In this document: positions 30,301 through 63,178 of the stretch, in pieces
Position numbering within the stretch: the stretch's first letter is position 1
How the letters are laid out: the number at the start of each line of letters is the position of its first letter
Assembly: GCA_002369075.1 (NCBI GenBank)
Contig: DFEG01000010.1
Coordinates: forward strand, 2-64,001
Length of the DNA stretch: 64,000 bases
From: Bacteroidales bacterium UBA3808
GTDB taxonomy: Bacteria > Bacteroidota > Bacteroidia > Bacteroidales > Paludibacteraceae
Reading direction: 5' to 3'
Notes under the pieces: generated by a model
Told to the model about the DNA's origin: nothing
Database searches by the model: none
Seen by the model: the letters and a program-made list of their open reading frames with translations, nothing else
Translations under genes and position numbers: made by a program

Positions 30301-30307
30301 GAAAAAG

Positions 30308-38064: not shown

Positions 38065-38071
38065 TGTAACT

Positions 38072-38842
38072 ATGAAGGATAAATTACTGAAATTAAAGCA
38101 AGACTTGGGACCACTGGATAGTTACTACGATCAATATCCTGAGTTGGATCGCATTATTAACGCGTTAAAGATGTATATTGGTCAATGCCTTCCTAAGGAG
38201 AAGAAAGAATGGGAAGATCGTATAAATGCTATTCAGTATCTATCTCCGATGGTGCAGTTTTCGGGTTACTATGATAAAGAGCGAGATAAGAGCGCCTTCC
38301 AGAAAGGCACCAAATCATTAGCTAATATCATTGATTTAGTCATTGAGCGTATCGAGATGGAAGAGCAACCTGCTCCCGCTAAGCGAAAGGCTAAATGTGA
38401 TAACCCCAACGTCTTTATCGTTCATGGTCACGACGAAGCAATGCGAGAGAAGGTTGCCCGGACAATTGAGAAATTAGAACTTACTGCAATCATTCTTAAC
38501 GAGCAAAGTAATAAAGGACAGACGATCATTGAGAAACTAGAGGAACACTCCAATGTTGGGTTCGCTGTCGTTCTATTGTCCCCTTGCGATGAAGGTAGAA
38601 AGGCCGGTGAAAATGATTGGCTGCCTCGCGCAAGGCAAAATGTCATCGCAGAAATGGGCTACTTCATTGGAAAATTAGGTAGAGATCGAGTTTGTATTTT
38701 GCAGAAAAAAGAGGTTGAAACACCATCTGATTTCACAGGTATCGTATATACTCCGTTTGATGAGAATGATGGCTGGCAATTGAAGTTGGCTAAAGAACTG
38801 AAAGCCGCTGGATATAATGTAAAAATCGAAAATCTATTATAG
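38072..38842 (+). CDS. TIR-like domain protein (PF10137 / COG4271 type, CAP12/Pycsar-effector-like) with a ~110-aa N-terminal helical domain
   Basis: NVFIVHGHDEAMREKV...ILNEQSNKGQTIIEKLEEHSNVGFAVVLLSPCDEG...RARQNVIAEMGYFIGKLGRDRVCIL...PSDFTGIVY...GWQLKLAKELKAAGY. Confidence 0.8.
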   Translation: MKDKLLKLKQDLGPLDSYYDQYPELDRIINALKMYIGQCLPKEKKEWEDRINAIQYLSPMVQFSGYYDKERDKSAFQKGTKSLANIIDLVIERIEMEEQPAPAKRKAKCDNPNVFIVHGHDEAMREKVARTIEKLELTAIILNEQSNKGQTIIEKLEEHSNVGFAVVLLSPCDEGRKAGENDWLPRARQNVIAEMGYFIGKLGRDRVCILQKKEVETPSDFTGIVYTPFDENDGWQLKLAKELKAAGYNVKIENLL

Positions 38843-38844
38843 AT

Positions 38845-41800
38845 ATGTTACCACTCCAACAAGCGTACGAGGTGAAGGAATCGGTGCTGGCCTACATTGA
38901 AGCCACTTTCCGATTCAAAGAAGAGAAAGTGCATAGCGCTTTCTATCAACTCATTCGCGACCCTGAAAACGGACTCTTCAAAGGACCATACATCTCCTTG
39001 AAGACTCCCTTCGTCAAAGCCACTCCCGAAGAAGCCGCAGCTATCCCCTTGGATATCAAGCCAACCGGATTCCTTCCCCATAAGCACCAGCTGCGTAGCT
39101 TCGAGCGACTCACTTCCCGTGACGGGCATCAGCCTCAGCCGACGCTCCTCACCACCGGTACCGGTTCCGGTAAGACCGAGTGTTTCCTCTATCCGATCCT
39201 CGACTACTGCTATCGGCTCAACAAAGATGGTGCACAAAAGGGTATCAAGGTTATCATCATGTACCCCATGAACGCCCTCGCTACCGACCAAGCAACGCGT
39301 CTCGCAGAAGCAATATACAACGATGAAAGACTCCGCGGAGTGGTAACGGCGGGACTCTTCATCGGTGAAGGTGCGGAACGCAAGGCACACGCAACCACGA
39401 TGGGAGAACATAACATCATCGAAGATCGAGACACCATCATCAATACCGCACCGGATATCCTTCTCACCAACTTCAAGATGTTGGATTACGGTCTCATGCA
39501 GCAGCAATATACCAAACTGTGGCACGGCAATGCCAACACCGCAGAACCTATGCTGCGCTATCTCGTCCTCGATGAGTTGCATACCTACGATGGTGCGCAA
39601 GGTACTGATGTCGCTAACCTCATCAGACGTCTCAAACTTAAACTATCGCTCCCCAAACATCATCTCTGTCCGGTTGGCACCAGTGCAACCATCAGCGGTG
39701 GTGAACAGAGCAAGCAGCAACTCATAAGCTACGCTTCCGATGTCTTCGGAGAAGATTTCGACGACCAATCGGTCATTGGTGAAGATCGTGTCGCAATCAA
39801 CGATTTCTTCGATGAATACCTCGACCCCTTTATTCCTTCCGAAGCCGACCTGCAGACCTGCAACGTCCAACTCATGCCGATGCCCGATTATATCCAGCAG
39901 GTACGCCGTATCTGGCTCCCTGGTGCAGGTGATAACCTCGAAGCGATCGGAGAAGGAATACGTTCCCTTACCGTCATTCGTGACCTGCTGAGCATCACCC
40001 AAGAGCATGTCGTTACGGTCGAGCAATTGGAAGACAAACTCGGTGATATCAACCCCGCCTTCCAGCGCCTGCGTCTCAAAGGCAAAGGCAAAAAGGTCAT
40101 CGAGACCATTCTTGCACTCGTTTCCGAAGCACGTGACGGGAAATTCCCGCTGCTCTTCCTCCAGATCCAACTCTGGCAACGAGAACTCAGTGGTGTCGTT
40201 CGCTACGTACAACGCGAACCTGAATTCACATGGCGTAACAGCCTGGAGCAAGACGGTCGTGTCGCGCTCCCAATTTACTTCTGCCGTGACTGCGGTGCAA
40301 GTGGTTGGATCAGCACCAAGAACGCAACCGACTTCCGTTTTGCTACCGACCTCGGTAAGATCAACAAAGCCTTCATGTCCAACGATAAGGACATCGTGCT
40401 CATCAATACCTATGGTCTCAACCATAAACCGATCCCCGACTATCTGGGTGAAGCATCAACCAACGTGGAGGAATATATCCGTCCGCGTGACCTCACCATT
40501 GTCGATAGTTCCGACGATGAAGCAATGCGTATCGTCTATTGCTCCAAACGTCGTGTAGCCAAGAAAACAGGTTCGCAGGCTTTCGTTAAGAACTGTCCGG
40601 AGTGCAACAGCAACTCCCTCGCTATCGTTGGTGGTCGTACCAGCACACTCTCTTCTGTCGCAATCAGTCAGATCATGGCTTCTGACTTCGACGAAAGCGA
40701 TATCGCACAACGCAAAGTGCTCACCTTCACCAATAGCGTCCAAGACGCAGCGCACCAAGCCGGTTTCTACGAGGCACGAACCTATCGTTTCCTCCTTCGT
40801 CAGTCCATACAGCAGTACCTCAAATACCGCTATGAGCAGACGAACGCGCCGATCCGGCTTACCGAATTGCAAGAAGGATTCAAAGCTTATTGGAAAGAAC
40901 ATCTTCCCGGAGATGAGTACTACTATCGCTTCCTTCCGACCGACCTCCTCAACCAAGTCGATCTCAACGAGAACTACCGTGATGCCAACGGTCAGTTCAT
41001 CGAAGCCTTCAAAAAGGAATTCGACCTGCGTATCGATTGGGAGATTTGTGCGGAATTCGGTCTTATGGCGCAACGAGGTCGTACCCTCGAGAAAGTAGGT
41101 TCCAGTGCGTGCTTCTTCGATAAAGAACAACTCGAAGATGTCTTCACCATCATGCAACCATGGATGCGGGAAAACCAACTCGACTATGTCGCAGACGACC
41201 GCCAGCGTTTCCTCCTCTTCCTTAATGGACTCCTCCACCGTATGCGTCTGCGTGGTGCTGTCGATCATCCTTACTATGAGCGATATCGTGGTATCGAGTT
41301 CAAACAAGTGAACCTCAACTGGTCTTTCCAACTGCAACATACCCACTTCCTCAATAAGAAATTCTTCGGCAATGTGCAGTTCCCGAAGTTCTTGCTCACC
41401 CATTACGAGCGGGATCTTTCTGACATACTGGACATCACCGAAATGCAGGGAAATAACGTCAATTGGTACGCCCAGTTCTTCCAACGTTCATTAGAAGGAA
41501 GTCAATTCGGTCAAAAAGCCTATCGTGAAGTGATCAACGATTTCTACCAGCGTCTGCTCGAAGCGATGGTCGAAGCCGGACTCGTCAATCGTGGCAATGC
41601 GGCTAATGGCAACTATGCCATCTGCCCCGAAGCCATCCTCGTAGAACCGCGTGTGAAGCATATCAAATGTGAAGATTGTCAGTCCATGCTCTGTGTGGCG
41701 CAAAGTGATACACTCGCGGAAGGTATTGCCTGTCTGAACTATAACTGCAACGGCTCTTATACCCAAGTACAGCGGAAGGAAGACAACTACTATAAACGCG

Positions 41801-44800
41801 TCTATGACCGAGACAAAGCACCGCGTATCTATGCCCACGAGCACACCGGACTACTCGAACGCTCCAAACGGGAAGAGATTGAGAACGACTTCAAACTGCA
41901 CCCGCATTTCAACTCCATCAATGCCCTCTCTGCTACCAGCACACTCGAGATGGGTATCGACATCGGTACGCTCAACGTCGTCGGCAATACCGACATACCG
42001 CCCAAACCCAGTAACTTCTTACAGCGTATCGGTCGTGCGGGACGTAAATCAGGTACGGCCCTCGTTCTCAACTATGCCCACTCCGATGGAGCACACGATA
42101 TGTTCTACTTCGCCGACCCGCTCGGCATGATGGAAGGAGAAGTGCAGACTCCGGGTTGTTTCTTGCAAGCCAAGGATATTCTCCGGCGTCATTTCTTCGC
42201 GTTCTGTATCGACTCATGGACTTCTGCTGATCCGACGAACACCATTCCGGCGCTCGTCAAACTCATGTCCTTGCGCAGAGATACACTCGCATCGCCCGAT
42301 TTCTTCCTCACGAAGATCCTGGCGTTCATCGATACCAACCGCGATACACTGCTCGCTAAATTCAGGGAACAATATCCGCCGAAAGCAGAAGAATCGCTCG
42401 ATAAACTCCAAGAGACCGTCATCAACGGCGATTTTGCAGAAGCCATCAAAGGGGCCTTCCGTGATCTCATCGAGCGCCACATTAGTACGTTTCGTCGCAT
42501 GAACGATATCGAGTCCCAGATCAATGCACTCGCTGCAAACGATCCGAGACGCGACGCACTCAAAGATGAACTCAAACCGCTCAAACGAGAGATATCCCGT
42601 ATCCTCAATGCCAACGTCATTGAGTTCATGACCAATGCCGGTCTGCTGCCGAACTATGCCTTCCCTGAGACTGGTGTCAAACTGGAAGCAACCGTCTATA
42701 AGCAGAAGCCCGCTGAAGATGAGAGTGTCTCCGAACTTATGCCCGACACCTTCGAACTCGTACGTCCCGCGTCCAACGGTCTCAAAGATCTTGCCCCGGG
42801 AAACCGATTCTATTCGCAGAAATACGAGATGCTGATATCCGGTGTCAATACCTTCGATTGGAATAAGACCCTCGGACGATTCCGTTACTGCTCCGATTGC
42901 GATTGTATCGCTGCCGAAGGAACCGACTGGTTCAACCAGCCTACCTGTCCCAAATGTGGTAGCGCTTCATGGGGTGGAACCGGTAACATCCACCATTTCC
43001 TCCGCTTCACCGGTGCTCGAAGCAGCATGAAACGAACCGATGCAGCTATCAACGACCGTTCCGATGAACGCGAACGCGAAAATTTCCATATCATGAAGCA
43101 TTTCCGCTTCAACTACCATGGTGCAGTCCGCTCCTACGGTCTCAAGAACGTCGGTTTCGGTATTGAGTTCTGTCCGGAAATGGACCTCATGGAGGTCAAC
43201 TACGGACCGCAGATGGCTTCGCAATCGCAAGTACAGATCGAGGGTGCTAAAGTACCGTCGCGTGGATTCATCGTCTGCCGCGAGTGTGGCAAGACGGTCA
43301 CCAAAGAAGTGGCTGACGCAGAAGAATGTCACTATCCTTTCTGCCACCACAAAGATGTACCGTACCCGCCGCATGAGGAAGCTGACATGGATGTCTTCAT
43401 GCCCACCTATCTCTACCGGCGCACTCAAACCGAAGCCATCAAAGTGCTGCTCCCTGTTCATCTACTTGATACCGAAGCTACGGTGCAGATGTTCAAAGCC
43501 GGACTCGAACTCGGCATGCGGTACTACTACCAGAGTAGCCCCGATCATATCCGCATCGATGTATACCGCGAGATGAACCAAGCCACACGCCAGTTCGATA
43601 ACTACCTCATCATCTACGATACCATTCCGGGTGGTACCGGCTATCTCTCGCGACTCCAATCGCCCGAAGAATTCAGCAAACTTCTCACCATCGCCTACGA
43701 GCATATCCGCGATTGTGAGTGCCAACGGCACGGAAAGGATGGGTGCTACCATTGTATCCTCTCTTATGCCAACCAATATATCCGGGAACAACTCAGTCGG
43801 GATCGTGCCGAAGAACTCTTCAAGAAACTCGTCGATGAACTCTCCAACTGGGAAGAGATAGATGGCTCTATCGGAACCGTCACGCAGAGTGGTGTCATCG
43901 AAGATAGCGAACTCGAACGGCAGTTCATCCTCGATATGGATCACTACTGCCGTGCCCACAATGGTTGGACGTGGTCCAAGCAACATGGCGAGAATGGTCT
44001 CTACCATTATATCCTCGATATCAAGCAGAAAGACCGTGCCTTACGTTACGTCATTCGTCCGCAATACCAACTCGGTGAAGCACAAGGCGTCGCCTTATAC
44101 ACCGTGCCTGACTTCCAGATCATCTGTATCAAAGCCATGGTGAACGGACAGAACATAGAGACCGAACGTATCCCGCAGTGGTCTATCTACCTCGACGGCT
44201 ATAGCTTCCATGCCAACTCTGAGTGCATGCGTTTCTATAGCGACTTCGAGAAACGGGAAGCTATTCGTCATAATACGCTCACCCGCATGAACACGTGGAC
44301 GCTCACTTGGGATGATCTCAATATCTTCGAAGGACAAGCAACGGTCGCTGAAGATGGACTCTATAACGGTAACTCCATGAACGGGTTCGCCAATGAGACC
44401 AGACTCGCCAAGAACTCCTTCGAACGACTCTTGCAAATGCTCATCTTGGTCGATATCGATTCAATTCGTTTTGATATCTACAAATACTTAGTTTGTAAGT
44501 CAACCAGTAGTGAGAATATTTGTCCTCCAGAGAGAGTAGAAGATGCTATATTCCTTCACGCTAATGGGGAATTCGCTGACGAAGTGACTCCGCAGATGAG
44601 GCAAAATTGGTCTTTCTTCGTTAAAAATCAATTATTGCAGCGTTCTTCACTCGTCAATGGATCTGCATGGGTGATGCCAAAACAAGGCGTTACTGTACAA
44701 GACAAACTCGAAGATAAGGTATGCTACGACTTCCAGATTGTTCCGAACCTTTCTGTAATCAACAAAGAAGATTGGAATGACTTTTGGCGTCGTTACAATC

Positions 44801-44853
44801 TTCTGCAGTTCTTCAAACTTGTGGGCGATGAAGAATCAGAAATAGAGGAATAA
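38845..44853 (+). CDS. 2002-aa DEAD/DEAH helicase fused to a DUF1998/MZB zinc module (DrmA-DrmB-like fusion) with several zinc ribbons and a C-terminal Vsr/DUF559-like motif
   Basis: LLTTGTGSGKTECF, VLDELHTYDG, LQRIGRAGR, the CRECG...CYHC module, zinc ribbons CRDCG/CPECN and CSDCDC...CPKCG, and the tail VPDFQ...IYLDGYSFH. Confidence 0.8.
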   Translation: MLPLQQAYEVKESVLAYIEATFRFKEEKVHSAFYQLIRDPENGLFKGPYISLKTPFVKATPEEAAAIPLDIKPTGFLPHKHQLRSFERLTSRDGHQPQPTLLTTGTGSGKTECFLYPILDYCYRLNKDGAQKGIKVIIMYPMNALATDQATRLAEAIYNDERLRGVVTAGLFIGEGAERKAHATTMGEHNIIEDRDTIINTAPDILLTNFKMLDYGLMQQQYTKLWHGNANTAEPMLRYLVLDELHTYDGAQGTDVANLIRRLKLKLSLPKHHLCPVGTSATISGGEQSKQQLISYASDVFGEDFDDQSVIGEDRVAINDFFDEYLDPFIPSEADLQTCNVQLMPMPDYIQQVRRIWLPGAGDNLEAIGEGIRSLTVIRDLLSITQEHVVTVEQLEDKLGDINPAFQRLRLKGKGKKVIETILALVSEARDGKFPLLFLQIQLWQRELSGVVRYVQREPEFTWRNSLEQDGRVALPIYFCRDCGASGWISTKNATDFRFATDLGKINKAFMSNDKDIVLINTYGLNHKPIPDYLGEASTNVEEYIRPRDLTIVDSSDDEAMRIVYCSKRRVAKKTGSQAFVKNCPECNSNSLAIVGGRTSTLSSVAISQIMASDFDESDIAQRKVLTFTNSVQDAAHQAGFYEARTYRFLLRQSIQQYLKYRYEQTNAPIRLTELQEGFKAYWKEHLPGDEYYYRFLPTDLLNQVDLNENYRDANGQFIEAFKKEFDLRIDWEICAEFGLMAQRGRTLEKVGSSACFFDKEQLEDVFTIMQPWMRENQLDYVADDRQRFLLFLNGLLHRMRLRGAVDHPYYERYRGIEFKQVNLNWSFQLQHTHFLNKKFFGNVQFPKFLLTHYERDLSDILDITEMQGNNVNWYAQFFQRSLEGSQFGQKAYREVINDFYQRLLEAMVEAGLVNRGNAANGNYAICPEAILVEPRVKHIKCEDCQSMLCVAQSDTLAEGIACLNYNCNGSYTQVQRKEDNYYKRVYDRDKAPRIYAHEHTGLLERSKREEIENDFKLHPHFNSINALSATSTLEMGIDIGTLNVVGNTDIPPKPSNFLQRIGRAGRKSGTALVLNYAHSDGAHDMFYFADPLGMMEGEVQTPGCFLQAKDILRRHFFAFCIDSWTSADPTNTIPALVKLMSLRRDTLASPDFFLTKILAFIDTNRDTLLAKFREQYPPKAEESLDKLQETVINGDFAEAIKGAFRDLIERHISTFRRMNDIESQINALAANDPRRDALKDELKPLKREISRILNANVIEFMTNAGLLPNYAFPETGVKLEATVYKQKPAEDESVSELMPDTFELVRPASNGLKDLAPGNRFYSQKYEMLISGVNTFDWNKTLGRFRYCSDCDCIAAEGTDWFNQPTCPKCGSASWGGTGNIHHFLRFTGARSSMKRTDAAINDRSDERERENFHIMKHFRFNYHGAVRSYGLKNVGFGIEFCPEMDLMEVNYGPQMASQSQVQIEGAKVPSRGFIVCRECGKTVTKEVADAEECHYPFCHHKDVPYPPHEEADMDVFMPTYLYRRTQTEAIKVLLPVHLLDTEATVQMFKAGLELGMRYYYQSSPDHIRIDVYREMNQATRQFDNYLIIYDTIPGGTGYLSRLQSPEEFSKLLTIAYEHIRDCECQRHGKDGCYHCILSYANQYIREQLSRDRAEELFKKLVDELSNWEEIDGSIGTVTQSGVIEDSELERQFILDMDHYCRAHNGWTWSKQHGENGLYHYILDIKQKDRALRYVIRPQYQLGEAQGVALYTVPDFQIICIKAMVNGQNIETERIPQWSIYLDGYSFHANSECMRFYSDFEKREAIRHNTLTRMNTWTLTWDDLNIFEGQATVAEDGLYNGNSMNGFANETRLAKNSFERLLQMLILVDIDSIRFDIYKYLVCKSTSSENICPPERVEDAIFLHANGEFADEVTPQMRQNWSFFVKNQLLQRSSLVNGSAWVMPKQGVTVQDKLEDKVCYDFQIVPNLSVINKEDWNDFWRRYNLLQFFKLVGDEESEIEE

Positions 44854-44871: not shown

Positions 44872-45849
44872 ATGCAAGTTATCAAGAAAACATTTGAGTA
44901 TTTCACGGCAGAAAAGTACTGCGATTTGGAATATGGTACAATCTATTATGTGCCCGGAACATCCTCGCACGAACTCAACGACTATATCTGCGCACGTGCC
45001 GACGAGATAGCCGCTCAGCTCAACAACGATGACCGTAACTGGGTCACATGCCGTATCGTCTACCTCACAAAAGACAATCCTCTCTTTGCTCCGTCCTCAA
45101 AACCTACGCTGCACAGCGCCATGTTACCGACGAGCGATACGCCCGCAAACGCATGCAGTTTCCTAAAGGCATCGCTGGACATCACCGAACCTTCCATTGT
45201 CGAAGACGCTCTCATCGAGTATTTCCGCACCTTGCAGCTGATGTTCGATGATATCTTGGACAAAGGCACGTGTAGCCATTATCTTCTGACTAGTACGATA
45301 CTCTCGCCCGTCGATGATCAGATTCGCTTCTCTGTTTCCCGTCGGGAGATGGATTTCGATGAAAATCGTATTAAAACTTGCGAGTGTCTCGACATGGCGT
45401 ACGAGGAAGAAGATGTTGAGCATTTCGACTATCCGAGTCGCCTCGAAATCACACCTAATACCTTCCAAGTGCTCCTACCGGACTACCATCGGGAAATCAA
45501 GTTCAACGCGCAGATTAAAGCCCTGTACGTACTCTTTCTTAACCACCCGGAAGGCATTCGCATGAAGGAAATCGGCGACTACAAAGAGGAGTATAAGCAA
45601 CTTTATCTATATTTCACTAATCGTGGTAATCTGGAACAGTTACGCCTCGCTGTCGATAAACTCTTCGATGCGTATAACCCCAATACCCTCAATGTCAAAA
45701 AATCCCAATGCAGCGAGCAATTAAGAATTGCTATTCCAGAAGATAACTTGCGACAATACTATGAGATTCAAGTTCATCGCGGCGAACCCCACAAGATCAA
45801 CCTCGACCGCTCCCTTGTCTCTATGCCTGATTTCTTGCACCAACTATAG
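44872..45849 (+). CDS. Hypothetical protein, last gene of the DISARM-like operon
   Basis: 325-aa ORF 19 nt after the helicase stop. No recognisable motif. The C-terminal third (ALYVLFLNHPEGIRMKEIG) could be wHTH-like. Confidence 0.5.
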   Translation: MQVIKKTFEYFTAEKYCDLEYGTIYYVPGTSSHELNDYICARADEIAAQLNNDDRNWVTCRIVYLTKDNPLFAPSSKPTLHSAMLPTSDTPANACSFLKASLDITEPSIVEDALIEYFRTLQLMFDDILDKGTCSHYLLTSTILSPVDDQIRFSVSRREMDFDENRIKTCECLDMAYEEEDVEHFDYPSRLEITPNTFQVLLPDYHREIKFNAQIKALYVLFLNHPEGIRMKEIGDYKEEYKQLYLYFTNRGNLEQLRLAVDKLFDAYNPNTLNVKKSQCSEQLRIAIPEDNLRQYYEIQVHRGEPHKINLDRSLVSMPDFLHQL

Positions 45850-45899
45850 TTTGTAACGTTACAAACATTTGCTTGCCTCGTATAAAAGCAGTACCTTTG
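45848..45899 (+). promoter_or_regulatory. Palindrome-promoter cassette 1 (AGTTTGTAACGTTACAAAC, TTTG, 20 nt, TACCTTTG)
   Basis: Palindrome at 45848-45866 overlapping the TAG stop at 45847-45849. -33 at 45868-45871 and -7 at 45892-45899. Confidence 0.7.
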
Positions 45900-45923
45900 C
45901 ACCGGATTTAAAACAACCCGACC

Positions 45924-46889
45924 ATGACCCAAGAACAAGACATAAGTAAACTGGATTTGCTATTTACGGAAATTGATACGTACCGTAGCAGTAAATTCTT
46001 CAAAAGGTTGATCGAATTCTGCGCCCGCTTTAAGACGCTGGCACCATACAACGCAATGCTTGTGCGCTTCCAAATGCCGGGTGCTCGTTATGTATTGACC
46101 TCTGCCGAATGGAGATCCAGATATCACCGCGGCGTGAAAGCAAAAGCAAGACCGTTAATCATCCTTGTGCCCTTTGGACCGGTGAATTTCGTGTTCGACA
46201 TCAAGGATACGTATCCTCTATCTCCTGATGATCCAAACACCACGGAGCAGATTCTGAAAGCGATGGAAAATCCTTACGCAACGCACGGGGAATTCAACAG
46301 ACAGTATCTTCATTTTCTCGAAAACAACCTGCAATATCATGGTATAGCTTACAATCCTAATTGGGAAACCGGTTCTACGGTGGCTGGAGAGCTCAAGCCA
46401 CTGCCGAATTCTTCAGAATACATGAAAGTTTATATTCCTTTTAGGAAAGGAGAGTTTCCTGTGCAGTCAAAGGCTCATTACGTTTTGAGCACCAGCAGTG
46501 ACGGCCATGATGGACAAACATTGGCCACTATTGCACATGAGTTGGGACATCTATTCTGCAATCATCTGCCCGCGCCCAAAGGTTGGAAGCATGCTTGGGC
46601 AGAAAGAGACATCGAATCCGAAGCCAAAGAATTTGAAGCAGAAGTGGTCTCATGGTTTATATGCGACAGATTGGGAATAAAGACTCCTTCTCACGAATAT
46701 CTCAGTGGCTTTTTGAAAAGCAATGATGAAATCCCCAAAGGAGCAAGCGTAGAAAGAATATTCTATGCCATCACTAAGGTGTGGGAAATGTGTTATAATG
46801 TGAACTTCACGTATAGAAATGGTTTGTTATACAAAAACGACGAGAAGTTTCAGGATGACGTCAAAGCAATAATAGAAAAGAACAAATAA
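45924..46889 (+). CDS. HExxH zinc metallopeptidase (ImmA/IrrE-like; the N-terminal half is possibly ArdC-N-like)
   Basis: ATIAHELGHLFCNH. The N-terminal PYNAMLVRFQMPGARYVLTSAEWRSRYHRGVKAKARPLIIL resembles the ArdC/DUF1738 pattern, judged by eye. Confidence 0.55.
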   Translation: MTQEQDISKLDLLFTEIDTYRSSKFFKRLIEFCARFKTLAPYNAMLVRFQMPGARYVLTSAEWRSRYHRGVKAKARPLIILVPFGPVNFVFDIKDTYPLSPDDPNTTEQILKAMENPYATHGEFNRQYLHFLENNLQYHGIAYNPNWETGSTVAGELKPLPNSSEYMKVYIPFRKGEFPVQSKAHYVLSTSSDGHDGQTLATIAHELGHLFCNHLPAPKGWKHAWAERDIESEAKEFEAEVVSWFICDRLGIKTPSHEYLSGFLKSNDEIPKGASVERIFYAITKVWEMCYNVNFTYRNGLLYKNDEKFQDDVKAIIEKNK

Positions 46890-47341
46890 TGGATACCCCT
46901 AAGAAAATAGTATATGTGGACATGGATAATGTCCTTGTCGATTTCCAGAGCGGGATAGATGCCATGCAAGACGTCATTACGTCAGAGTATGACGGTCGCA
47001 TTGACGAAGTGCCGCATATCTTTGCACACATGGAACCGCTCCCCGGCGCCGTTGAAGCCTACCGCGCCTTGTGCGAAAAATATGATTGTTATATCCTCAG
47101 CACTTCTCCTTGGAGCAACCCTACCGCTGCAAGCGATAAGTTCGATTGGGTTAAGAAATATCTTGGCGATGTTGCCTATAAGCGTCTAATCCTCTCGCAC
47201 CACAAGAACCTCAATCGTGGTGACTATCTGATCGATGATCGCCCTAACAAATGTGGTGCCGACCTCTTTGAAGGCGAAGTAATTCCTTTTGGCAGCGACC
47301 AATTCCCCAACTGGGATGCAGTATTGAAGTATTTATTGTAA
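46889..47341 (+). CDS. 5'(3')-deoxyribonucleotidase (NT5C family, HAD superfamily)
   Basis: HAD motif I (VYVDMDNVLVDF), ILSTSPW, and the C-terminal DYLIDDRP. Confidence 0.7.
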   Translation: MDTPKKIVYVDMDNVLVDFQSGIDAMQDVITSEYDGRIDEVPHIFAHMEPLPGAVEAYRALCEKYDCYILSTSPWSNPTAASDKFDWVKKYLGDVAYKRLILSHHKNLNRGDYLIDDRPNKCGADLFEGEVIPFGSDQFPNWDAVLKYLL

Positions 47342-47363
47342 TGAAATAATTAATAGCTAATTT

Positions 47364-48134
47364 ATGGTACTATATCAAGTTCTCAGATGGTGTTTTATTA
47401 TAGCAGCAATTCTGGCATTCGCTGGATTGTGCATAAACTCCTCAAATGCAGGCGGTGAGTATGTGCAAAACAATTTTTTACGTAGAAACATCGTCTTGTG
47501 TCTATGTGTAATGCTTTGCGCTTATTTATTGGATAATTCTTTTAGGATGTTATCTATCATCTTGCTATTGGGGGTTGTTTTCTTTTTGGTGGTGTTTATA
47601 ATAGAAGCCTTCAAAACAAGGAAAATCAATGATGCAATACGATATGGTATTAAAGGTACCTATTGGACAAAATATTATGATGACGATTACGGTAAGTTCT
47701 ACTTGGTAAGAAGATACACTTATCTTCATAACTTGGGTAAATGTTCAGATTCTGATAATAGAGAGGAGTATTATGGATTATTGGACTTATATGACAATGA
47801 AACGCATAAGTTTGTTCGTACCGTATCTAAAGAATTGCTATGGGAGATGATTAAGAAGCATATCAGTAAAGATAAGGTGCATTCACGTATGAAGACATAC
47901 TGCGACTTTGCAATAATGTATCCTAAATTGCAATATAGTGCATATAGGATAGATGTAAAAAAATTCAAGGACATTGCTGCGCAGTATGGTGCCGAGCATA
48001 ATATTACAATTGAATATGAGTTTGTATCATCTGGGAACGAATTATACCTAATGATATATAATCAAGATATCTCTCAATTGAAAAAAGATTTGCCGGAGTT
48101 AATGAATTTAGCTGACGAATATCGTAGTTTGTAA
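47364..48134 (+). CDS. Membrane-anchored hypothetical protein (3 N-terminal TM helices plus a soluble domain)
   Basis: Hydrophobic segments within residues 1-85. AT-rich codon usage. Confidence 0.5.
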   Translation: MVLYQVLRWCFIIAAILAFAGLCINSSNAGGEYVQNNFLRRNIVLCLCVMLCAYLLDNSFRMLSIILLLGVVFFLVVFIIEAFKTRKINDAIRYGIKGTYWTKYYDDDYGKFYLVRRYTYLHNLGKCSDSDNREEYYGLLDLYDNETHKFVRTVSKELLWEMIKKHISKDKVHSRMKTYCDFAIMYPKLQYSAYRIDVKKFKDIAAQYGAEHNITIEYEFVSSGNELYLMIYNQDISQLKKDLPELMNLADEYRSL

Positions 48135-48177
48135 CGTTACAAACTTTTGGGTGTCTCCCAAAATTGTAGTACTTTTG
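48126..48177 (+). promoter_or_regulatory. Palindrome-promoter cassette 2 (AGTTTGTAACGTTACAAACT, TTTG, 20 nt, TACTTTTG)
   Basis: Perfect 20-bp palindrome at 48126-48145 overlapping the TAA stop at 48132-48134. -33 at 48146-48149 and -7 at 48170-48177. Confidence 0.7.
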
Positions 48178-48212
48178 CAGTGGATTTCAAAATCTGCTGC
48201 AATTTTTGTATT

Positions 48213-49805
48213 ATGATGAACGTTAATTCCAATATGAGAGACATGCTTCACTACCCAAAATTTCAAATGGGTATAGTGAAAGATTTTACGCTGGGTTTCA
48301 TTAAACGACACCCGCAAGTGAAGCAAGAGCAACTGACGGTGGCCTTGGATCTGAGTAAAGCTGTCCATGTCATCACCAACATCTTCCTCAAAGAAGCGGC
48401 ACGCGGTCATATCTTCTATGACACACTTTTCTTATCCCTCTTGTCCAAACAAGAACTTCCCGCGTCTTTTTATATGGAAGACCGCCGCATCGCCAGTTTC
48501 TTCGCGCACAAGAGTGCTTTCCAAGATATGGATTGGGACTTCATCTATAAATACACGACCTACCATGTCAAGGCCTATCTGCTCTGCTACGATTTCTGTA
48601 ACGACATGTTGAGACATTATGATGAACTGATAAACGACCTCTACGTGATCAGTTGTATCTCAAGCCTCTCTTCCAAACAAGAAATCTATCGAGCACAATC
48701 GGCAACGGAGATCCTCACCAATGCTATTCAATCACATGCCAATGAACTTATCCGAACGATGGAACACAAAGGACAACTCCCTTACGTCCACACATCTAAC
48801 AACCTCGATGAGATCCTTGCCCGTCTTCCCAAACAACCCGAACTGCCACAATCGCTCTCTTACAAACCTATCGTGTCAGTAGACGATGATATAAGAATCG
48901 ATGTAACCGGTCCTGCGAAAGGAAAGAAGACCGAACCAAAGAGTGAACCAACGAATATCTTTGATAACCAATCTGCTCGTCCAAAAGGCTTTTCTGCTAT
49001 AGCGGGAATGACCGAACTCAAAGATAAATTCCGCTCCGATATCATCGACGTATTACGTGAACCGGAACGAGCCAGAGCATTAAACATCACACTGCCCAAT
49101 GGCGCCCTTCTATACGGTCCTCCGGGTTGTGGCAAGACGTTCTTTGCGGAGAAACTGGCTGAAGAAGCAGGGTGTCATTTCATAACAGTTAACTGCTCCG
49201 ATATCGCTTCTACTTTTATCCACGGCACACAAAAACTCATCGCGGAGAAGTTTGCCGAAGCTGAGGAAAACAAACCTTCCATCATCTTCTTCGATGAGAT
49301 TGACGCGATGATTCCCAAACGCAATGCACGCGGTTCTGAATACACTAAGACCGAAGTGAATGAGTTCCTCACTCAGCTCAATCATTGTGGTCGTAAAGGA
49401 ATAATCGCTATAGGAGCTACGAACCGCCCGCAAGATGTGGACGAAGCAGCACTCCGCTCAGGCCGTTTGGAATTGAAATATTACCTTCCGGAACCGGATA
49501 GAGAGACACGTCTGGTGATGTTCGGCATCAATCTGCATCATACCTCGTTTAGAGGCAGTATCGATCTGGAGAAGTTAGCAGATCAGACTGAAGGCTATGT
49601 ATCTGCCGATATCGAACGAATTGTCGCAGAAACCAAACGCACCGCCTTCCGCAAAAGAATGGATCATATCACGATGGACATGCTGGAAGAAACTATCCGA
49701 ACAACCAAACCATCTGTACCCAAATCTACAATCAAAGAATGTGAAGCCATTCGTGATAAGTTCGAAGGCCGCAAACCCGAATACCAACGTATTGGATTCT
49801 GTTAA
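48213..49805 (+). CDS. Classical-clade AAA+ ATPase (CDC48/FtsH-like module) with a ~270-aa N-terminal domain of unknown function
   Basis: Walker A GPPGCGKTFFAEKLAEE, Walker B IIFFDEIDAM, and SRH ATNRPQDVDEAALRSGRLE. Start taken at the ATG at 48213, downstream of the promoter. Confidence 0.8.
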   Translation: MMNVNSNMRDMLHYPKFQMGIVKDFTLGFIKRHPQVKQEQLTVALDLSKAVHVITNIFLKEAARGHIFYDTLFLSLLSKQELPASFYMEDRRIASFFAHKSAFQDMDWDFIYKYTTYHVKAYLLCYDFCNDMLRHYDELINDLYVISCISSLSSKQEIYRAQSATEILTNAIQSHANELIRTMEHKGQLPYVHTSNNLDEILARLPKQPELPQSLSYKPIVSVDDDIRIDVTGPAKGKKTEPKSEPTNIFDNQSARPKGFSAIAGMTELKDKFRSDIIDVLREPERARALNITLPNGALLYGPPGCGKTFFAEKLAEEAGCHFITVNCSDIASTFIHGTQKLIAEKFAEAEENKPSIIFFDEIDAMIPKRNARGSEYTKTEVNEFLTQLNHCGRKGIIAIGATNRPQDVDEAALRSGRLELKYYLPEPDRETRLVMFGINLHHTSFRGSIDLEKLADQTEGYVSADIERIVAETKRTAFRKRMDHITMDMLEETIRTTKPSVPKSTIKECEAIRDKFEGRKPEYQRIGFC

Positions 49806-49837
49806 TATATTGTCTAACCCTCAAAAATTATTGAACT

Positions 49838-50545
49838 ATGGAAACAACTGCAAAAACCCAAGTCTACAACCTCGTTATCCTCGACAAATCCGGTTCCATG
49901 GAATCGATCCGCAAAGAAGCCATTGACGGCTACAACGAAACACTCGGCACAATACGTGCTGCCCAACTCAAACACATGGATACTCAAGATCATTTCGTCT
50001 CACTCGCGGCTTTCTGCGGTTGCGGCATCGAGATGATCTACGACAAAACACCCATCAAAGACGCCGATAAACTAACTCGGGAAAAGTACGAACCCTGTTG
50101 CAGCACTCCTCTCTTTGATGCCATCGGTTCTACCATCAAAAAACTCAAACACGATATTAAAGATATCGAAGACGCGGCTGTCCTCGTTACAGTCATCACC
50201 GACGGGTACGAAAATTCGTCCAAAGAATGGACCGGTCCGGCTATCAAGAAACTCGTTGACGAGTGCAAGCAAGACGGTTGGATGTTTGCCTTCATCGGTT
50301 CCGGAGAAGACGTCCTTAAAGTGGCCACTACTATCTCCATCACTAACACCCTCAACTGGGAGAAGACGCGCCGTGGTACTGAGGTTATGTTCTCCCTTGC
50401 CAGCGAAGCCAGCGAACGGTTCTATGACAAGATGGCCATTAACGAATGTATCAATGAAAACTATGAAGACCGCAAACGTAAGCGTCGGCAGTTTGCTGAA
50501 GAGTATTTCGATGAAGAAAAGAAACCCGATGCCCCATGCAAATAA
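49838..50545 (+). CDS. von Willebrand factor A (vWA, TerY-like size) domain protein
   Basis: MIDAS motif LVILDKSGSM; 235 aa. Confidence 0.7.
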   Translation: METTAKTQVYNLVILDKSGSMESIRKEAIDGYNETLGTIRAAQLKHMDTQDHFVSLAAFCGCGIEMIYDKTPIKDADKLTREKYEPCCSTPLFDAIGSTIKKLKHDIKDIEDAAVLVTVITDGYENSSKEWTGPAIKKLVDECKQDGWMFAFIGSGEDVLKVATTISITNTLNWEKTRRGTEVMFSLASEASERFYDKMAINECINENYEDRKRKRRQFAEEYFDEEKKPDAPCK

Positions 50546-50994
50546 CCAATTACACATTCGCGAACATTACCGCTCGTCCGTTCTTGACACTCAATGATGC
50601 CAACAACCCATGGATCTTAACAGACTCCACCAAACACATTATTGACGTGTGCATGTACCGAGAACCGGAACTACAAGATCTCTTTCGTGCAAAAGGCATA
50701 ACCTTCGATTGGTTCCCTACCGATGAACAGCCGATGGATCTGGATATGGTACTCAGAGCGGTCGCCAAACTCGCCGAGTATGATCGTGATGGCTCACATA
50801 TCATCGTACATTGTTTAGGTGGTAACAACCGCTCTCGAACTGTCGTTGAAGCCTTCCACTTCGCAAAACTTGGCACGCATTTTGAAGATGAGTATAAAGG
50901 CTGCACGAACCACCTCATCTGGAACTGCGAGCAAGGCTATTTACCTCCTCTATCGGAGATGGAAAAATTATTGACTAAAATAAAAGACCATTGA
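50536..50994 (+). CDS. Cys-based (CX5R) dual-specificity/tyrosine protein phosphatase-like protein
   Basis: IIVHCLGGNNRSRTV matches HCxxGxxRS/T. Overlaps the vWA gene by 10 nt. Confidence 0.65.
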   Translation: MQITNYTFANITARPFLTLNDANNPWILTDSTKHIIDVCMYREPELQDLFRAKGITFDWFPTDEQPMDLDMVLRAVAKLAEYDRDGSHIIVHCLGGNNRSRTVVEAFHFAKLGTHFEDEYKGCTNHLIWNCEQGYLPPLSEMEKLLTKIKDH

Positions 50995-50997
50995 CTT

Positions 50998-51660
50998 ATG
51001 AAAAAGATTTTATTTGTACTTTCTCTGCTGGTGTCATTAGGCATCTACGCACAGAACAGTAATGAAGAAGCATTGCAGGATCTTATCAATGTTCGCCAAA
51101 AGAGCATTGAGTTTTACAAGTCATATCCGCAACAATTGGCGGACGCTGCTCGCAGTTTGGAAAACCCCAACGTGGTCTATGACCCGTCCTATGTAAGAAT
51201 TGCATATCCCAATGGAGATGTGGCTTCCGACCATGGTGTCTGCACTGATGTGGTTATCCGTGCTTTCCGTAAAGCTTGGGGATGGGATTTGCAGAAAACT
51301 ATCTATGAGTTTCAGAAAGAGCAGTTCCCTAATCGCAAGTTAGATAGAAACATCGACCACCGTCGCGTGCGTAATCTTATGGAGTTCTTTGATGCGTACT
51401 TTGATATGACCCAACTCTACAACACCTATGAGAATGAATATCGCAAAGGGAATATAATTATTTGGGATTTAGGTGGCGGTCAACTGCATATAGGTATCTG
51501 TGTAGCCAACGATACCATTATTCATAATATCTGTTGCGGACAGGTAATTGAACCGATGTATATGCAGGACAGAGTTATACGCAATTATTCGTTCGAACCT
51601 GACTTTCATCGGACAATCATGACTGGTTATATGAGACAATGGGAAGATTTATCGAAATAA
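50998..51660 (+). CDS. DUF1287 domain-containing secreted protein
   Basis: Signal peptide, then YPNGDVASDHGVCTDVVIRAFRKAWGWDLQK...HIGIC, the DUF1287 pattern. Confidence 0.65.
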   Translation: MKKILFVLSLLVSLGIYAQNSNEEALQDLINVRQKSIEFYKSYPQQLADAARSLENPNVVYDPSYVRIAYPNGDVASDHGVCTDVVIRAFRKAWGWDLQKTIYEFQKEQFPNRKLDRNIDHRRVRNLMEFFDAYFDMTQLYNTYENEYRKGNIIIWDLGGGQLHIGICVANDTIIHNICCGQVIEPMYMQDRVIRNYSFEPDFHRTIMTGYMRQWEDLSK

Positions 51661-51914
51661 TTTGCATAACGATTCAGCAGAAATGTCGGCGGCATTATTT
51701 GGGATGTGGGTCGCTACCACGTTTCACGTTGCGGTTTCTGCCATCTTGCAATGACAGTGGCATTGTTAGCGTGTAGGGTCGCAACCTTGCTCTACGTAGC
51801 GGTTGCAAGGAATCGTTTCAAAGAGACGTCTGCGGCTTTGTTGGCGCAAGGTTAACACCTACTCCATGTAGCGGTCTCTTTGGCTCCCGAAGTTCACCCT
51901 TCGGGAGTTTTTTT
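51661..51914 (+). ncRNA. Candidate structured RNA or 3'-UTR element ending in a strong intrinsic terminator
   Basis: Nested helices: 51668-75/51810-17, 51678-83/51735-40, 51781-86/51801-06 and 51820-27/51874-81. Three (A/C)(C/T)GT(T/A)GCGGT repeats. The terminator is ctcccgaa/ttcgggag plus T7 (51884-51914). Confidence 0.4.
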
Positions 51915-51991: not shown

Positions 51992-52020
51992 CGCCGATAA
52001 CGACGCAAACAAACAGAAAC

Positions 52021-52845
52021 ATGGATCGCAGAGCATATCTTATATCGGTTTTTGACGATACGTTGGAGCGTATCAATGGTGACTTTGAATTGCACAAAGC
52101 GCAGCAGCAATCCATAGCCGCGCAGAAGCTGATTCTCGAAAAGGAATCGTTAGATATTCCGGCACCAAGGTTTGACGAGAAGGCACAAGTCCTTGTGACG
52201 AAGAACCGTTCCTTTGAAGCAGCAGCGCAATACATGGAGCAACATGTGTGCGTGCTGAATTTCGCTTCGGCAACTAATCCCGGCGGAGGTGTGACGCATG
52301 GTTCGTCCGCACAAGAGGAATGTCTGTGCCGTTGCTCCACCTTATACAACTGCCTGAACACGCGCGCCATGTGGGATGGGTTCTACACGCCGCATCGTCA
52401 TTCCGGCAATCCGTTGCATAACGATGACATCATCTTCACGCCCAACGTACAAGTGCTAAAAGACGATGACTACCAGCCATTGGTGGACCCGTTTGCGGTG
52501 GATGTCATCACTTGTGCGGCACCGAACCTCCGTGAGCAACCGGCTAATCCCTATAATCCGGACGACGGCGATTCGAAGCGCATCAGCAAGGACAAGTTGT
52601 ACCAACTGCACAAGCAACGTGCACGTCGTATCTTAACGGTGGCTGCGCAGAACGAAGCAGATGTGCTAATATTGGGCGCGTTTGGTTGCGGAGCCTTCCA
52701 GAACGACCCGCAAGTGGTGGCTCGTGCATACAACGATGTGCTGGCAGAGTTCAGCCATCATTTCCGAACGATTGAGTTTGCGGTCTATTGCCGCCCGCAC
52801 GACGACAGCAACTACCGCGCATTTAAGGAGATTATAAGAGTATGA
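52021..52845 (+). CDS. TIGR02452/DUF2263 family protein (microbial PARG-like macrodomain fold)
   Basis: VLNFASATNPGGGVTHGSSAQEECLCRCSTLY and LILGAFGCGAFQNDP. Confidence 0.7.
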   Translation: MDRRAYLISVFDDTLERINGDFELHKAQQQSIAAQKLILEKESLDIPAPRFDEKAQVLVTKNRSFEAAAQYMEQHVCVLNFASATNPGGGVTHGSSAQEECLCRCSTLYNCLNTRAMWDGFYTPHRHSGNPLHNDDIIFTPNVQVLKDDDYQPLVDPFAVDVITCAAPNLREQPANPYNPDDGDSKRISKDKLYQLHKQRARRILTVAAQNEADVLILGAFGCGAFQNDPQVVARAYNDVLAEFSHHFRTIEFAVYCRPHDDSNYRAFKEIIRV

Positions 52846-53303
52846 AAGACTATAAACTAACAGAAGACGGGCTATATGCCTACCAGTATCCGCGTGCATC
52901 GGTAACGGCAGATGCTGTGCTTTTTGCTGAGTGCGAAGGGCAGATGTACGTGCTACTTATCCAACGCGGCAACGACCCATACAAAGGCTATTGGGCATTC
53001 CCCGGTGGCTTCCTCAATATGGATGAGACGGTTGCTCGTTGTGCAGAGCGTGAATTAGAGGAAGAAACAGGTATTGTGCTGACCGGTATGCAACTCGCAG
53101 GAGTTTATTCCGACGTGGAGCGTGATCCGCGTGGACGTGTTATCACAGCAGCCTATACAGCCATGACTACCATGCCGGAGGCAACTGCCGCAGACGATGC
53201 TGCTGCGGCTAAATGGTGGCCGCTGAATGACTTACCGCCGTTAGCCTTCGACCATGAGACAATTTTACGGGACGCAAAACGAGTAATGAATATTAAAGAT
53301 TAA
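52842..53303 (+). CDS. NUDIX hydrolase (ADP-ribose pyrophosphatase-like)
   Basis: Nudix box GGFLNMDETVARCAERELEEETG. 4-nt overlap with the upstream gene. Confidence 0.8.
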   Translation: MKDYKLTEDGLYAYQYPRASVTADAVLFAECEGQMYVLLIQRGNDPYKGYWAFPGGFLNMDETVARCAERELEEETGIVLTGMQLAGVYSDVERDPRGRVITAAYTAMTTMPEATAADDAAAAKWWPLNDLPPLAFDHETILRDAKRVMNIKD

Positions 53304-62449: not shown

Positions 62450-62549
62450 AGTAATTTTTTTTTCTTCCGCCAACCTTTTCTGATTGGCGGGAGAAAAAAA
62501 GTTAAACAATGTTATTAACGACAAATGACTTCCACATCTGTGAAAGTCA

Positions 62550-62610: not shown

Positions 62611-62642
62611 TTGTGCGCAGGATGAGACTCGAACTCACACGA
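62611..62642. repeat. attR: 32-bp direct repeat covering the 3' end of the intact tRNA-Leu(GAG)
   Basis: Identical to 20660-20691. Confidence 0.9.
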
Positions 62643-62697
62643 TCTTGCGACCACTACCCCCTCAAAGTAGCGTGTATACCAATTTCACCACCTGCGC
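62614..62697 (-). tRNA. tRNA-Leu (anticodon GAG)
   Basis: The reverse complement folds as a cloverleaf: acceptor GCGCAGG/CCTGCGC, anticodon loop TTGAGGG, long variable arm, T-loop TTCGAGT. Confidence 0.9.
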
Positions 62698-62698
62698 G

Positions 62699-62780
62699 TG
62701 CCCAGAACAGGACTCGAACCTGCACACCTCGCGGCATGCGCACCTGAAACGCACGCGTCTACCAATTCCGCCATCTGGGC
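62699..62780 (-). tRNA. tRNA-Leu (anticodon CAG)
   Basis: Acceptor GCCCAGA/TCTGGGC, anticodon stem TGCGT/GCGCA with loop TTCAGGT, long variable arm, T-loop TTCGAGT. Confidence 0.9.
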
Positions 62781-62807
62781 TCGCACTCGTAAAGTGCAAA
62801 AAAAAAG

Positions 62808-62880
<73 letters not shown>

Positions 62881-63108: not shown

Positions 63109-63178
63109 TTAGACCGAAGTCGGACTAAAGTCGGACTAAAGTCGGACTAAAGCCGGACCATTATCGGACTTTTATCGA
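63109..63178. repeat. 11-bp tandem repeat TCGGACTAAAG (3 perfect plus about 3 degenerate units) upstream of the rRNA promoter
   Basis: Perfect units at 63120, 63131 and 63142. Degenerate units ccggaccatta and tcggactttta follow. Confidence 0.9.

Follow-up and report, generated by a model that had tools for sequence, protein, structure and literature searches.

An AAA+ ATPase gene followed by a predicted cysteine phosphatase gene in shuffled accessory arrays of Bacteroidales

We use sequence comparison, structure models and surveys of gene neighbourhoods to study module B, an operon of four genes that encode an AAA+ ATPase (AAA), a protein with a vWA domain, a small dual-specificity phosphatase (DSP) and a DUF1287 protein. 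It lies in a 64,000-nucleotide (nt) stretch of contig DFEG01000010.1 from Bacteroidales bacterium UBA3808; we call this whole stretch the window, and coordinates are positions in it. We find that the DSP gene is the next or next-but-one gene after the AAA gene in 11 of the 11 contigs in which the downstream DNA is visible, and that the triad AAA–vWA–DSP occurs in the window only. The explanation that accounts best for this pattern, to which we assign a probability of about 0.45, is a two-gene core in which an AAA+ unfoldase with an exchangeable N-terminal domain (N-domain) would act together with the small cysteine phosphatase, the vWA protein being a facultative adaptor. As far as can be read from sequence, module B is most likely an uncharacterised conflict or stress module of the defence type.

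The features of module B, with protein lengths in amino acids (aa), are the following.

48125..48212, + strand: promoter cassette 2, upstream of the AAA gene
48213..49805, + strand: AAA+ ATPase of the classical clade, 530 aa counted from ATG
49838..50545, + strand: stand-alone vWA protein, 235 aa
50536..50994, + strand: small atypical dual-specificity Cys-based phosphatase (DSP), 152 aa
50998..51660, + strand: DUF1287 protein, NlpC/P60-like, 220 aa, the last gene of the operon
51882..51909, + strand: terminator-like hairpin of 11 pairs followed by a T-run, between the DUF1287 and PARG genes

The AAA and vWA genes are separated by 32 nt, the vWA and DSP genes by -10 nt (an overlap) and the DSP and DUF1287 genes by +3 nt. 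Because of these gaps, and because the cassette lies upstream and the terminator-like hairpin downstream, module B is a single operon that runs from the cassette through AAA, vWA, DSP and DUF1287 to the terminator.

Linkage across related loci

We compare the window with related loci, numbered with the prefix L, in two anchored sets: 15 distinct loci around vWA relatives, with flanks of up to 10 kb, and 53 metagenome loci around DSP relatives. The 11 contigs that show what follows an AAA gene (the window, L019, L020, L041, L051, L092, L028/29, L030/31, L033, L034 and L090/91) hold about 8 distinct AAA proteins with 3 N-domain types and AAA identity down to 58%. The slot between AAA and DSP holds the vWA gene (in the window only), a gene for a secreted 156-aa protein (five contigs) or nothing. 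The link from AAA to DSP is obligate when seen from the AAA side; vWA, N-domain and DSP are linked more loosely.

Now we consider the same neighbourhoods from the side of the vWA gene. In six of the vWA-anchored loci a homologue of g325, a gene that heads many arrays and is described below, adjoins the vWA gene, and in others NUDIX, NT5C or PARG does. Four loci (L001, L007, L015 and L017) have the order g325, cassette, vWA, and the AAA open reading frame (ORF) of the window falls exactly within the vWA leader of these four. The vWA gene is a facultative plug-in, not the organising component. A preliminary description of this DNA had taken the three genes for a TerY-P-like triad and had proposed a survey for conserved AAA–vWA–DSP triplets as a check. 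The survey goes against the triad as a conserved unit: outside the window we find no triad, 0 of 15 vWA-anchored loci carry AAA or DSP, and what is strongly conserved is the AAA–DSP link alone.

Around the DSP gene the company is more varied. Among the 53 DSP-anchored loci we count AAA in 5, the AAA N-domain in 6, vWA in 8, NT5C in 10, g325 in 12, an M78-like peptidase in 6 and DUF1287 in 3. Proximity of vWA and DSP is kept in a DSP branch that is 40-44% identical to the window DSP (L062, L066, L071), and an M78-like gene followed by NT5C is a recurrent pair upstream of AAA or DSP. These genes (g325, M78-like peptidase, NT5C, AAA, vWA, DSP and DUF1287) are a shuffled accessory pool of Bacteroidales. 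The module in the window itself looks recombinant by sequence identity, since its AAA is 94% identical to that of L019, the closest orthologue, which has a different gene in the vWA slot, and its vWA and DSP are closest to those of L035 (90% and 81%).

Predicted proteins and their partners in sister loci

The AAA protein carries the Walker A motif GPPGCGKT, the Walker B motif IIFFDEID and a second region of homology (SRH) that reads ATNRPQDVDEAALRSGRLE. Pfam scans match AAA (PF00004) at 2e-35 and AAA_lid_3 at 1.5e-9, with AAA_5 at merely 2e-5, and the top NCBIfam matches are CDC48 (1e-50), PAN (2e-47) and FtsH (5e-47), all of them under the curated full-length cut-offs. Because CDC48, PAN and FtsH are the best family-level matches, we place the protein, on the strength of sequence profiles, in the classical clade and not in MoxR. 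Its N-domain, which we call Nw (about residues 1-250), is followed by the AAA module, the lid and a conserved C-terminal tail ending ...IRDKFEGRKPEYQRIGFC. We find three full-length relatives only, at 94%, 65% and 48% identity. Over the AAA half, DSP-linked ATPases of ~470 aa and ~750 aa with N-domains of other types share 58-68% identity with the window protein, and the abundant Ser/Thr-kinase–AAA fusions, which are the nearest relatives outside the subclade, share 50-58%.

Two features of the AAA clade bear on what the protein may do. The pore-loop motif (F/Y)-I-H-G is kept throughout, kinase fusions included, and so is the C-terminal tail, which reads ...IRDKFEGRK..RIGFC in the clade and ...IGFN or KIGF in the kinase fusions (window 49680-49805; P0270-P0363). 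ClpX uses the tripeptide I-G-F, in its IGF loop, for docking on ClpP. Because the C-terminal I-G-F resembles this IGF loop, the AAA protein may be a peptidase-docking unfoldase with ClpP as a candidate partner. The N-domain is also found as a protein of its own: free-standing Nw occurs as a 176-aa protein between vWA and DSP in L046, L048, L049 and L054 and as a 247-aa protein upstream of AAA in L092. A 221-aa protein in the place of AAA in L035 was considered as another Nw relative and rejected on comparison.

The 152-aa DSP matches Pfam DSPc at 3e-5, under the gathering score, and belongs to a narrow family of 94 clusters, for most members of which PF00782 is precomputed. In its P-loop HCLGGNNRSRT (H92-C93-x5-R99-S100) the residues C93 and R99 are invariant in the family, E64 aligns with the general-acid Asp of DUSP proteins, and the family profile matches DUSP10 and poxvirus VH1 at ~1e-6. 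The AlphaFold2 (AF2) model, with a predicted local distance difference test (pLDDT) score of 94.3, has the atypical-DSP fold, and its Foldseek matches are the minimal atypical DSPs DUF442, Tk-PTP, DUSP23, DUSP10, PFA-DSP and PTPMT1. By P-loop, modelled fold and acid position, the protein is a Cys-based dual-specificity phosphatase, its activity being predicted. Searches of phage, plasmid and IMG/VR collections return no match to the DSP, and we therefore regard it as chromosomal and not as cargo of mobile elements. The DUF1287 protein downstream (Pfam 1.2e-37) has an N-terminal signal peptide and recurs after DSP–NT5C in L033, L034, L036 and L090. A 135-aa gene that is frequently found 3' of DSP matches DUF6578 (Pfam, E up to 1), and at the same limit Pfam gives no match for free Nw, the 156-aa protein, the g325 C-terminal domain or the C-terminal domain of long DSPs.

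The 235-aa vWA protein has no Pfam match of its own. It matches phrog_7371 at 3e-38 and belongs to a family of 11,898 representative clusters (E up to 1e-3), where VWA_2 is matched by 22 of 72 relatives and VWA by 21 of 72 (about 30% of sampled members); vWA-TerF-like is touched, weakly, by just 2 of the 72. Of the residues of the metal-ion-dependent adhesion site (MIDAS; D16-x-S18-x-S20, T90, D122), D16, S20, T90 and D122 are invariant in the family and S18 nearly so, and in the window protein the complete MIDAS is followed by a C-terminal helical tail. The AF2 model (pLDDT 95.1) matches TFIIH p44/p34, integrin I-domains and anthrax-receptor vWA domains in the PDB and also phage VWFA proteins, with Foldseek vWA matches at probability 1.0. 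Judged by these several lines, the protein is a genuine vWA domain with a MIDAS. A Ro60-type identity was rejected (BLASTP E 0.9).

Relatives of the vWA protein are common in viruses (157 phage records and at least 220 relatives in IMG/VR). Those reached by way of the family profile share just 27-40% identity, and in 80 viral loci we see none of the pool genes near vWA except one AAA-module match (1/80). One IMG/VR contig, L089, which was found through g325, carries a 53%-identical vWA fragment adjoining NUDIX. The plasmid matches are uninformative because they are all distant and lie on non-mobilizable megaplasmids, and the one annotated Prevotella record gives no informative context. Other genomes, and one phage contig, have PARG or NUDIX directly 5' of a vWA homologue (L006, L016, L018, L089), which hints at a recurring link of vWA with ADP-ribose-processing enzymes.

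Taken component by component, the preliminary description thus stands: on re-reading the ORFs, the four genes, their motifs, the 10-nt overlap of vWA and DSP and the 3-nt gap before DUF1287 are as it gave them, the CDC48/FtsH-clade assignment is borne out by the Pfam AAA and AAA_lid_3 matches together with NCBIfam CDC48, PAN and FtsH, the vWA domain with MIDAS by family Pfam matches, invariant residues and the AF2 model, and a phosphatase that is Cys-based and not PP2C by family profile, invariant C93/R99 and the DSP fold.

Sister loci of the AAA–DSP pair bring in two further kinds of partner. The first is a kinase. L028-31 have the order kinase–AAA–DSP, without vWA, and the kinase of L028, a kinase-TPR protein, has PADLOC matches to PD-T4-6, an anti-phage kinase (5e-46), and to Stk2 (4e-16). 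L028 shares the NUDIX–YbjQ–DUF1349 synteny found downstream in the window, and the equivalent place holds an MmeI-type restriction-modification (RM) system, kinase-TPR, AAA and DSP. The kinase–AAA fusions mentioned above (587 aa) are abundant in Prevotellaceae metagenomes (L022-L027, L093), with no DSP nearby. Their operon also encodes an 830-aa HSP70-like protein, a TPR/YfiO-like protein and a TerB-like protein, and the fusion kinase domain matches PADLOC mad6 at 1e-37 and PD-T4-6 at 3e-32; this operon is probably a separate uncharacterised system.

The second kind of partner is RNA repair. In L090 (1380-9007), five tRNAs, Ro60 (TROVE + vWA_Ro60), a YrlA-like element (E 0.002, under the gathering score), RtcB and tRNA-Ile(UAU) are followed by AAA–DSP–NT5C–DUF1287. 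The same four genes come directly after RtcB in L033, and L038 (19-2539) has RtcB, tRNA-Ile(UAU), a metallophosphoesterase and DSP. A tRNA-Ile with the unusual UAU anticodon thus stands after RtcB in two independent loci. The window contains no RtcB, Ro60 or Y-RNA-like element.

Promoter cassettes and the surrounding island

The cassette upstream of module B, already noticed in the preliminary description as the second palindrome-promoter cassette, is real in that its 67 nt at 48125-48191 are a 79% copy of window 45847-45913. It contains a perfect 16-nt palindrome, TTTGTAACGTTACAAA, at 48128-48143, a TTTG box at 48146-48149 (-33) and, 20 nt on, TACTTTTG at 48170-48177 (-7), the last two of which jointly fit the -33/-7 consensus of Bacteroides promoters. 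An inverted repeat with a T-run at 48175-48202, terminator-like, overlaps the -7 box and the leader. This leader inverted repeat is confined to modules whose first gene is AAA, vWA or one further gene, and it shows one compensatory change, in L021. In 716 kb we count the 10-nt core of the palindrome, GTAACGTTAC, 20 times, where 0.68 occurrences would be expected (about 30-fold enriched). Of the first 84 loci fetched, 16 have the cassette, in every case at a module boundary and ahead of a first gene such as AAA or vWA; L092 has it too.

We find the cassette suggestive of a shared operator that is also a recombination substrate, because copies of it bracket the M78-like/NT5C/transmembrane module (module A) as direct repeats. 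The palindrome may most simply be an operator common to the modules, with g325 a candidate binder; a second candidate may be whatever the M78/CapP-like peptidase (45924-46889) controls. The loci with the cassette and the other features of the island are as follows.

Window 45847-45913 and 48125-48191, and L001, L007, L015, L017, L019-L021, L035, L041, L046, L049, L051, L053 and L092: palindrome/promoter cassette
21004-28313: upstream island edge, with a helix-turn-helix (HTH) protein, a 1065-aa DnaG-type primase, ArdA and an SLFN/AlbA_2-HTH protein
28432-44853: Druantia-like cluster, with a HATPase_c protein, an SNF2 helicase, a 1650-aa Eco57I-type methylase, a CAP12/Pycsar-type TIR protein and a 2002-aa DruE-like helicase
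44872-45849: g325, 325 aa, starting 19 nt past the end of the DruE-like gene
45924-48134: module A, between two cassettes, with a 321-aa zincin, an NT5C-type HAD nucleotidase and a 256-aa membrane protein
52018-53303: PARG (TIGR02452) and NUDIX, 3' of module B
61211-62524, - strand: tyrosine integrase, the only integrase, about 10 kb from the array

The window is chromosomal, with gyrB, DAHP synthase, folE and a PorZ-like gene upstream and, downstream of the module, NUDIX, YbjQ, DUF1349, carbonic anhydrase and YbaK; module B lies at the 3' end of a variable island with a GC content of 41-45%, and the host genome is that of a rumen-type Bacteroidales. The upstream edge of the island (21004-28313) may be a mobile-element remnant. 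We see no recombinase adjoining the array in the window, and Rfam finds no RNA family in window 20000-56000. The gene g325 heads arrays in many genomes, with the palindrome directly after it, and its product may be a regulator, whose C-terminal domain might be a palindrome-binding winged helix. It has no Pfam match, and PDB sequence searches are empty for it and for the M78-like protein; its conserved C-terminal domain (residues 189-316) is also part of 521-aa proteins encoded on phage contigs in IMG/VR, and an RtcB, NUDIX or vWA gene lies on some of these contigs as well. In module A, the 321-aa zincin (45924-46889), which has HExxH, gives weak matches to Peptidase_M78, MPTase-PolyVal and CapP (E about 1e-3 to 7e-3), and the NT5C-type HAD nucleotidase is ~90% identical across many genomes. 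Defence genes also occur elsewhere in the set: an MmeI-type RM system in L028, a Mokosh-like helicase within the array of L019 and L051, and AbiJ, AbiEii, WYL and YobI genes adjoining vWA relatives. Together, this context is circumstantial evidence of defence-island behaviour.

Several copies of a 12-mer, GTAACGGAAAGA, form tandem repeats at 28068-28114, at the end of the SLFN-like gene region. The integrase adjoins three tRNA genes (62614-62880, - strand), 11-mer tandem repeats lie at 63112-63155 near the rRNA operon, and the 16S rRNA gene begins at 63693.

A possible mechanism and competing explanations

Because the N-domains vary, a kinase is the partner in sister loci and the Cys-phosphatase is obligate, the two-gene core suggests a remodeller under the control of phosphorylation. 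In such a scheme the N-domain, together with the vWA protein through its MIDAS where it is present, would choose which protein serves as target or partner, the AAA ring with its conserved pore loop would unfold or remodel that target, and the C-terminal I-G-F motif might allow it to be handed to ClpP. The DSP would remove the phosphorylation by which the system is turned on or the target labelled, and would therefore be a reset or safety element. Expression of the module would probably be governed by the factor that binds the shared palindrome, and the vWA gene would have been recombined into the slot between AAA and DSP.

Parts of this scheme resemble known systems. McsB–ClpC–YwlE is the phospho-arginine degradation system of Firmicutes, in which a kinase writes, an AAA+ unfoldase acts and a Cys-phosphatase erases, a division of labour mirrored by kinase–AAA–DSP in L028-31. 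The latter, however, have a eukaryotic protein kinase (ePK)-type Ser/Thr kinase and a DSP fold, which are unrelated to McsB and LMW-PTP, and in module B a protease partner is hinted at solely by the IGF-like tail and the window is without a kinase. PD-T4-6 and Stk2, matched by the kinase upstream of AAA–DSP in L028-31, are stand-alone kinases, whereas the window has only a putative accessory pair, AAA and DSP. IetAS, which consists of the AAA protein IetA and the S8 protease IetS, likewise has a single-ring AAA of classical type in a defence context, and the AAA protein matches PADLOC IetA at 1.4e-29 and NCBIfam IteA at 6e-27. Yet its 94.7 bits compare with an IteA_antiphage cut-off of 510 and are weaker than its scores for CDC48, PAN and FtsH, a likeness at the domain level only, and the partner in module B is a phosphatase, with no peptidase_S8 in the operon or its flanks. 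Membership in IetAS was rejected on this score and the absence of the S8 protease.

Several observations weigh against the two-gene core. From the DSP side the link is loose, AAA being present in only those 5 of 53 loci, and DSP is also found after NT5C, a metallophosphoesterase and other genes. Because the whole neighbourhood is a shuffled pool, adjacency may in part reflect shared array membership rather than interaction, and the sample is mostly rumen and gut metagenomes with many short contigs. The AAA N-domains have no detectable homologues (Pfam scan, E up to 1), and the tail is read as a ClpP-docking motif by analogy alone. Neighbourhood Pfam scans and tblastn with two kinase queries find no kinase in the 64-kb window, so that the phospho-switch would be one without a visible writer there. 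The loci with RtcB, Ro60 and tRNA would suggest a nucleic-acid substrate for the phosphatase, and the DUF1287 and 156-aa proteins are secreted, a poor fit with a purely cytosolic model.

We can now say how far the preliminary description's broader claim, that of an analogous conflict system, is supported. The operon, the defence-rich variable island, the flavour of phospho-signalling and the AAA–DSP link speak for it; the three-gene unit does not stand. As to its idea that the AAA protein takes the place of a kinase, the window has no kinase, and sister loci pair AAA–DSP with a PD-T4-6-like kinase. That no system of this composition has been described holds for the AAA–DSP pair in PADLOC v2, where it has no match, and in the literature searched. 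A bolder proposal, which we regard as doubtful, is that AAA–DSP is an undescribed immune or stress family of Bacteroidales, a ClpP-docking unfoldase with interchangeable sensors (PD-T4-6-like kinase, vWA/MIDAS, N-domains) that would be gated by the phosphatase, with the palindrome-controlled cassette as a scaffold for swapping.

Turning to other explanations, we consider it unlikely that the genes are independent cassettes of a recombining, integron- or rAID-like array in which adjacency merely results from shuffling at the palindrome/promoter repeats. Such an array would explain why the families, about 10 in number, come in many orders and subsets, why the repeated cassette marks module boundaries, how the AAA ORF comes to lie inside the vWA 5' leader of L001, why the window module looks recombinant (AAA near L019; vWA and DSP near L035) and why so many different genes stand upstream of DSP. 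Within modules, however, no cassettes separate the genes, which overlap or have gaps of 2-32 nt; the succession of AAA and DSP is kept in 11 of 11 contigs, whichever of three N-domain architectures the AAA has and at AAA identities as low as 58%; the N-domain of AAA stands free exactly between vWA and DSP; and no recombinase adjoins the array, the sole integrase being ~10 kb off on the other strand. The rAID-1 arrays of Bacteroidales have a 5' XerD-like recombinase, type VI secretion system (T6SS) immunity genes and a GC content of 41% or lower (Ross et al., bioRxiv 10.1101/471110). The window array, also from Bacteroidales, is like them in its co-directional shuffled accessory genes, repetitive intergenic sequences (the 67-nt cassette) and lowered GC (bioRxiv 10.1101/471110), but it is headed by g325 and lacks a tyrosine recombinase of XerD-like type at its 5' end, its GC is 41-45%, and it carries genes for enzymes and ATPases, none of them known T6SS immunity genes. 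It was not counted as a rAID-1 array, since no XerD-like recombinase heads it.

A serious rival, if a rather improbable one, is that module B belongs to a toolkit for RNA damage, in which DSP and the NT5C-like HAD protein would trim ends for RtcB and the AAA and vWA proteins would be a ribonucleoprotein remodeller or scaffold, comparable to the Ro60 vWA. Some cysteine phosphatases are RNA 5'-phosphatases, and the order Ro60, YrlA-like element, RtcB and tRNA ahead of AAA–DSP–NT5C–DUF1287 in L090, the RtcB genes in the L033 and L038 arrangements and the NUDIX and PARG genes next to the window module all fit this explanation; the likeness to an Rsr(Ro60)/Y-RNA/RtcB operon lies in the AAA–DSP–NT5C–DUF1287 genes behind such genes in L090 and behind RtcB in L033. 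Against it, the window is without RtcB, Ro60 or a Y-RNA-like element, its vWA is not similar to that of Ro60, the best matches of the DSP are protein phosphatases or atypical DSPs with no RNA triphosphatase among the matches listed, and the partner kinase in L028 is a protein kinase. Membership of module B in an Rsr/RtcB operon was rejected, RtcB, Ro60 and Y RNA being confined to L033, L038 and L090.

An obligate three-component antiphage system like TerY-P, with AAA replacing the kinase or a MoxR partner, is highly improbable. TerY-P reportedly consists of the TerY vWA protein, a PP2C phosphatase and a Ser/Thr kinase. Module B shares with it a vWA/MIDAS protein and a phosphatase in a defence island, and a kinase appears in sister AAA–DSP loci; moreover, the three genes are tightly spaced and co-transcribed as an operon, the module adjoins the Druantia-like cluster, and 8 of the 53 loci anchored on DSP have vWA close to it. 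But the triad is confined to the window, with 0 of 15 vWA loci having AAA or DSP, the 94% AAA orthologue in L019 has another gene in the vWA slot, and vWA stands alone behind the cassette in L001, L007, L015 and L017. In PADLOC there is no TerY-P match: the window vWA matches 0 families, and nothing there matches the DSP. The phosphatase is of the Cys-based DSP kind, with no PP2C found in the operon (Pfam), the window has no kinase, the vWA is facultative, and the sister loci that bear a kinase are without vWA. The missing three-way linkage largely refutes this explanation, and TerY-P membership was rejected, with TerY-type vWA, PP2C and operon kinase all absent. The MoxR–vWA pairs (RavA–ViaA, CbbQ–CbbO, NorQ–NorD; vWA–MoxR–VMAP) likewise place an AAA+ motor beside a MIDAS-bearing vWA, a possible adaptor, but the ATPase of module B is classical and CDC48/PAN/FtsH-like and its vWA pairing is not conserved; membership was rejected, with AAA beside 0 of 15 vWA relatives and vWA beside no other member of the AAA subclade.

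Least probable of all is that a mobile element or phage remnant brought in module B as anti-defence or takeover cargo, the DSP countering host kinase defences beside ArdA, PARG and NUDIX: ArdA and a primase do lie 20 kb upstream, phages often carry members of the vWA family (157 phage records, with at least 220 relatives in IMG/VR), IMG/VR contigs carry NUDIX, vWA, RtcB and the g325 C-domain, and identity between genomes is high (NT5C ~90%, vWA 70-90%), but no match to the DSP turns up among phages, plasmids or IMG/VR, the viral vWA relatives are 27-40% identical with pool genes absent nearby except for the single AAA-module match in 80, sister modules sit between housekeeping genes without mobility genes, and the partner kinase resembles defence kinases.

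We return to the two-gene core and to what it would mean. If AAA–DSP is a functional unit, it would add a phosphatase-gated protein unfoldase to the conflict machinery of bacteria and would offer a handle on how kinase defences of the PD-T4-6/Stk2 type are restrained or executed. The palindrome/promoter cassette is a tractable example of how Bacteroidales of gut and rumen mix accessory genes at one regulatory scaffold. Finally, the link to Ro60, RtcB and tRNA raises the idea that defences based on protein phosphorylation are co-organised with RNA-repair responses.

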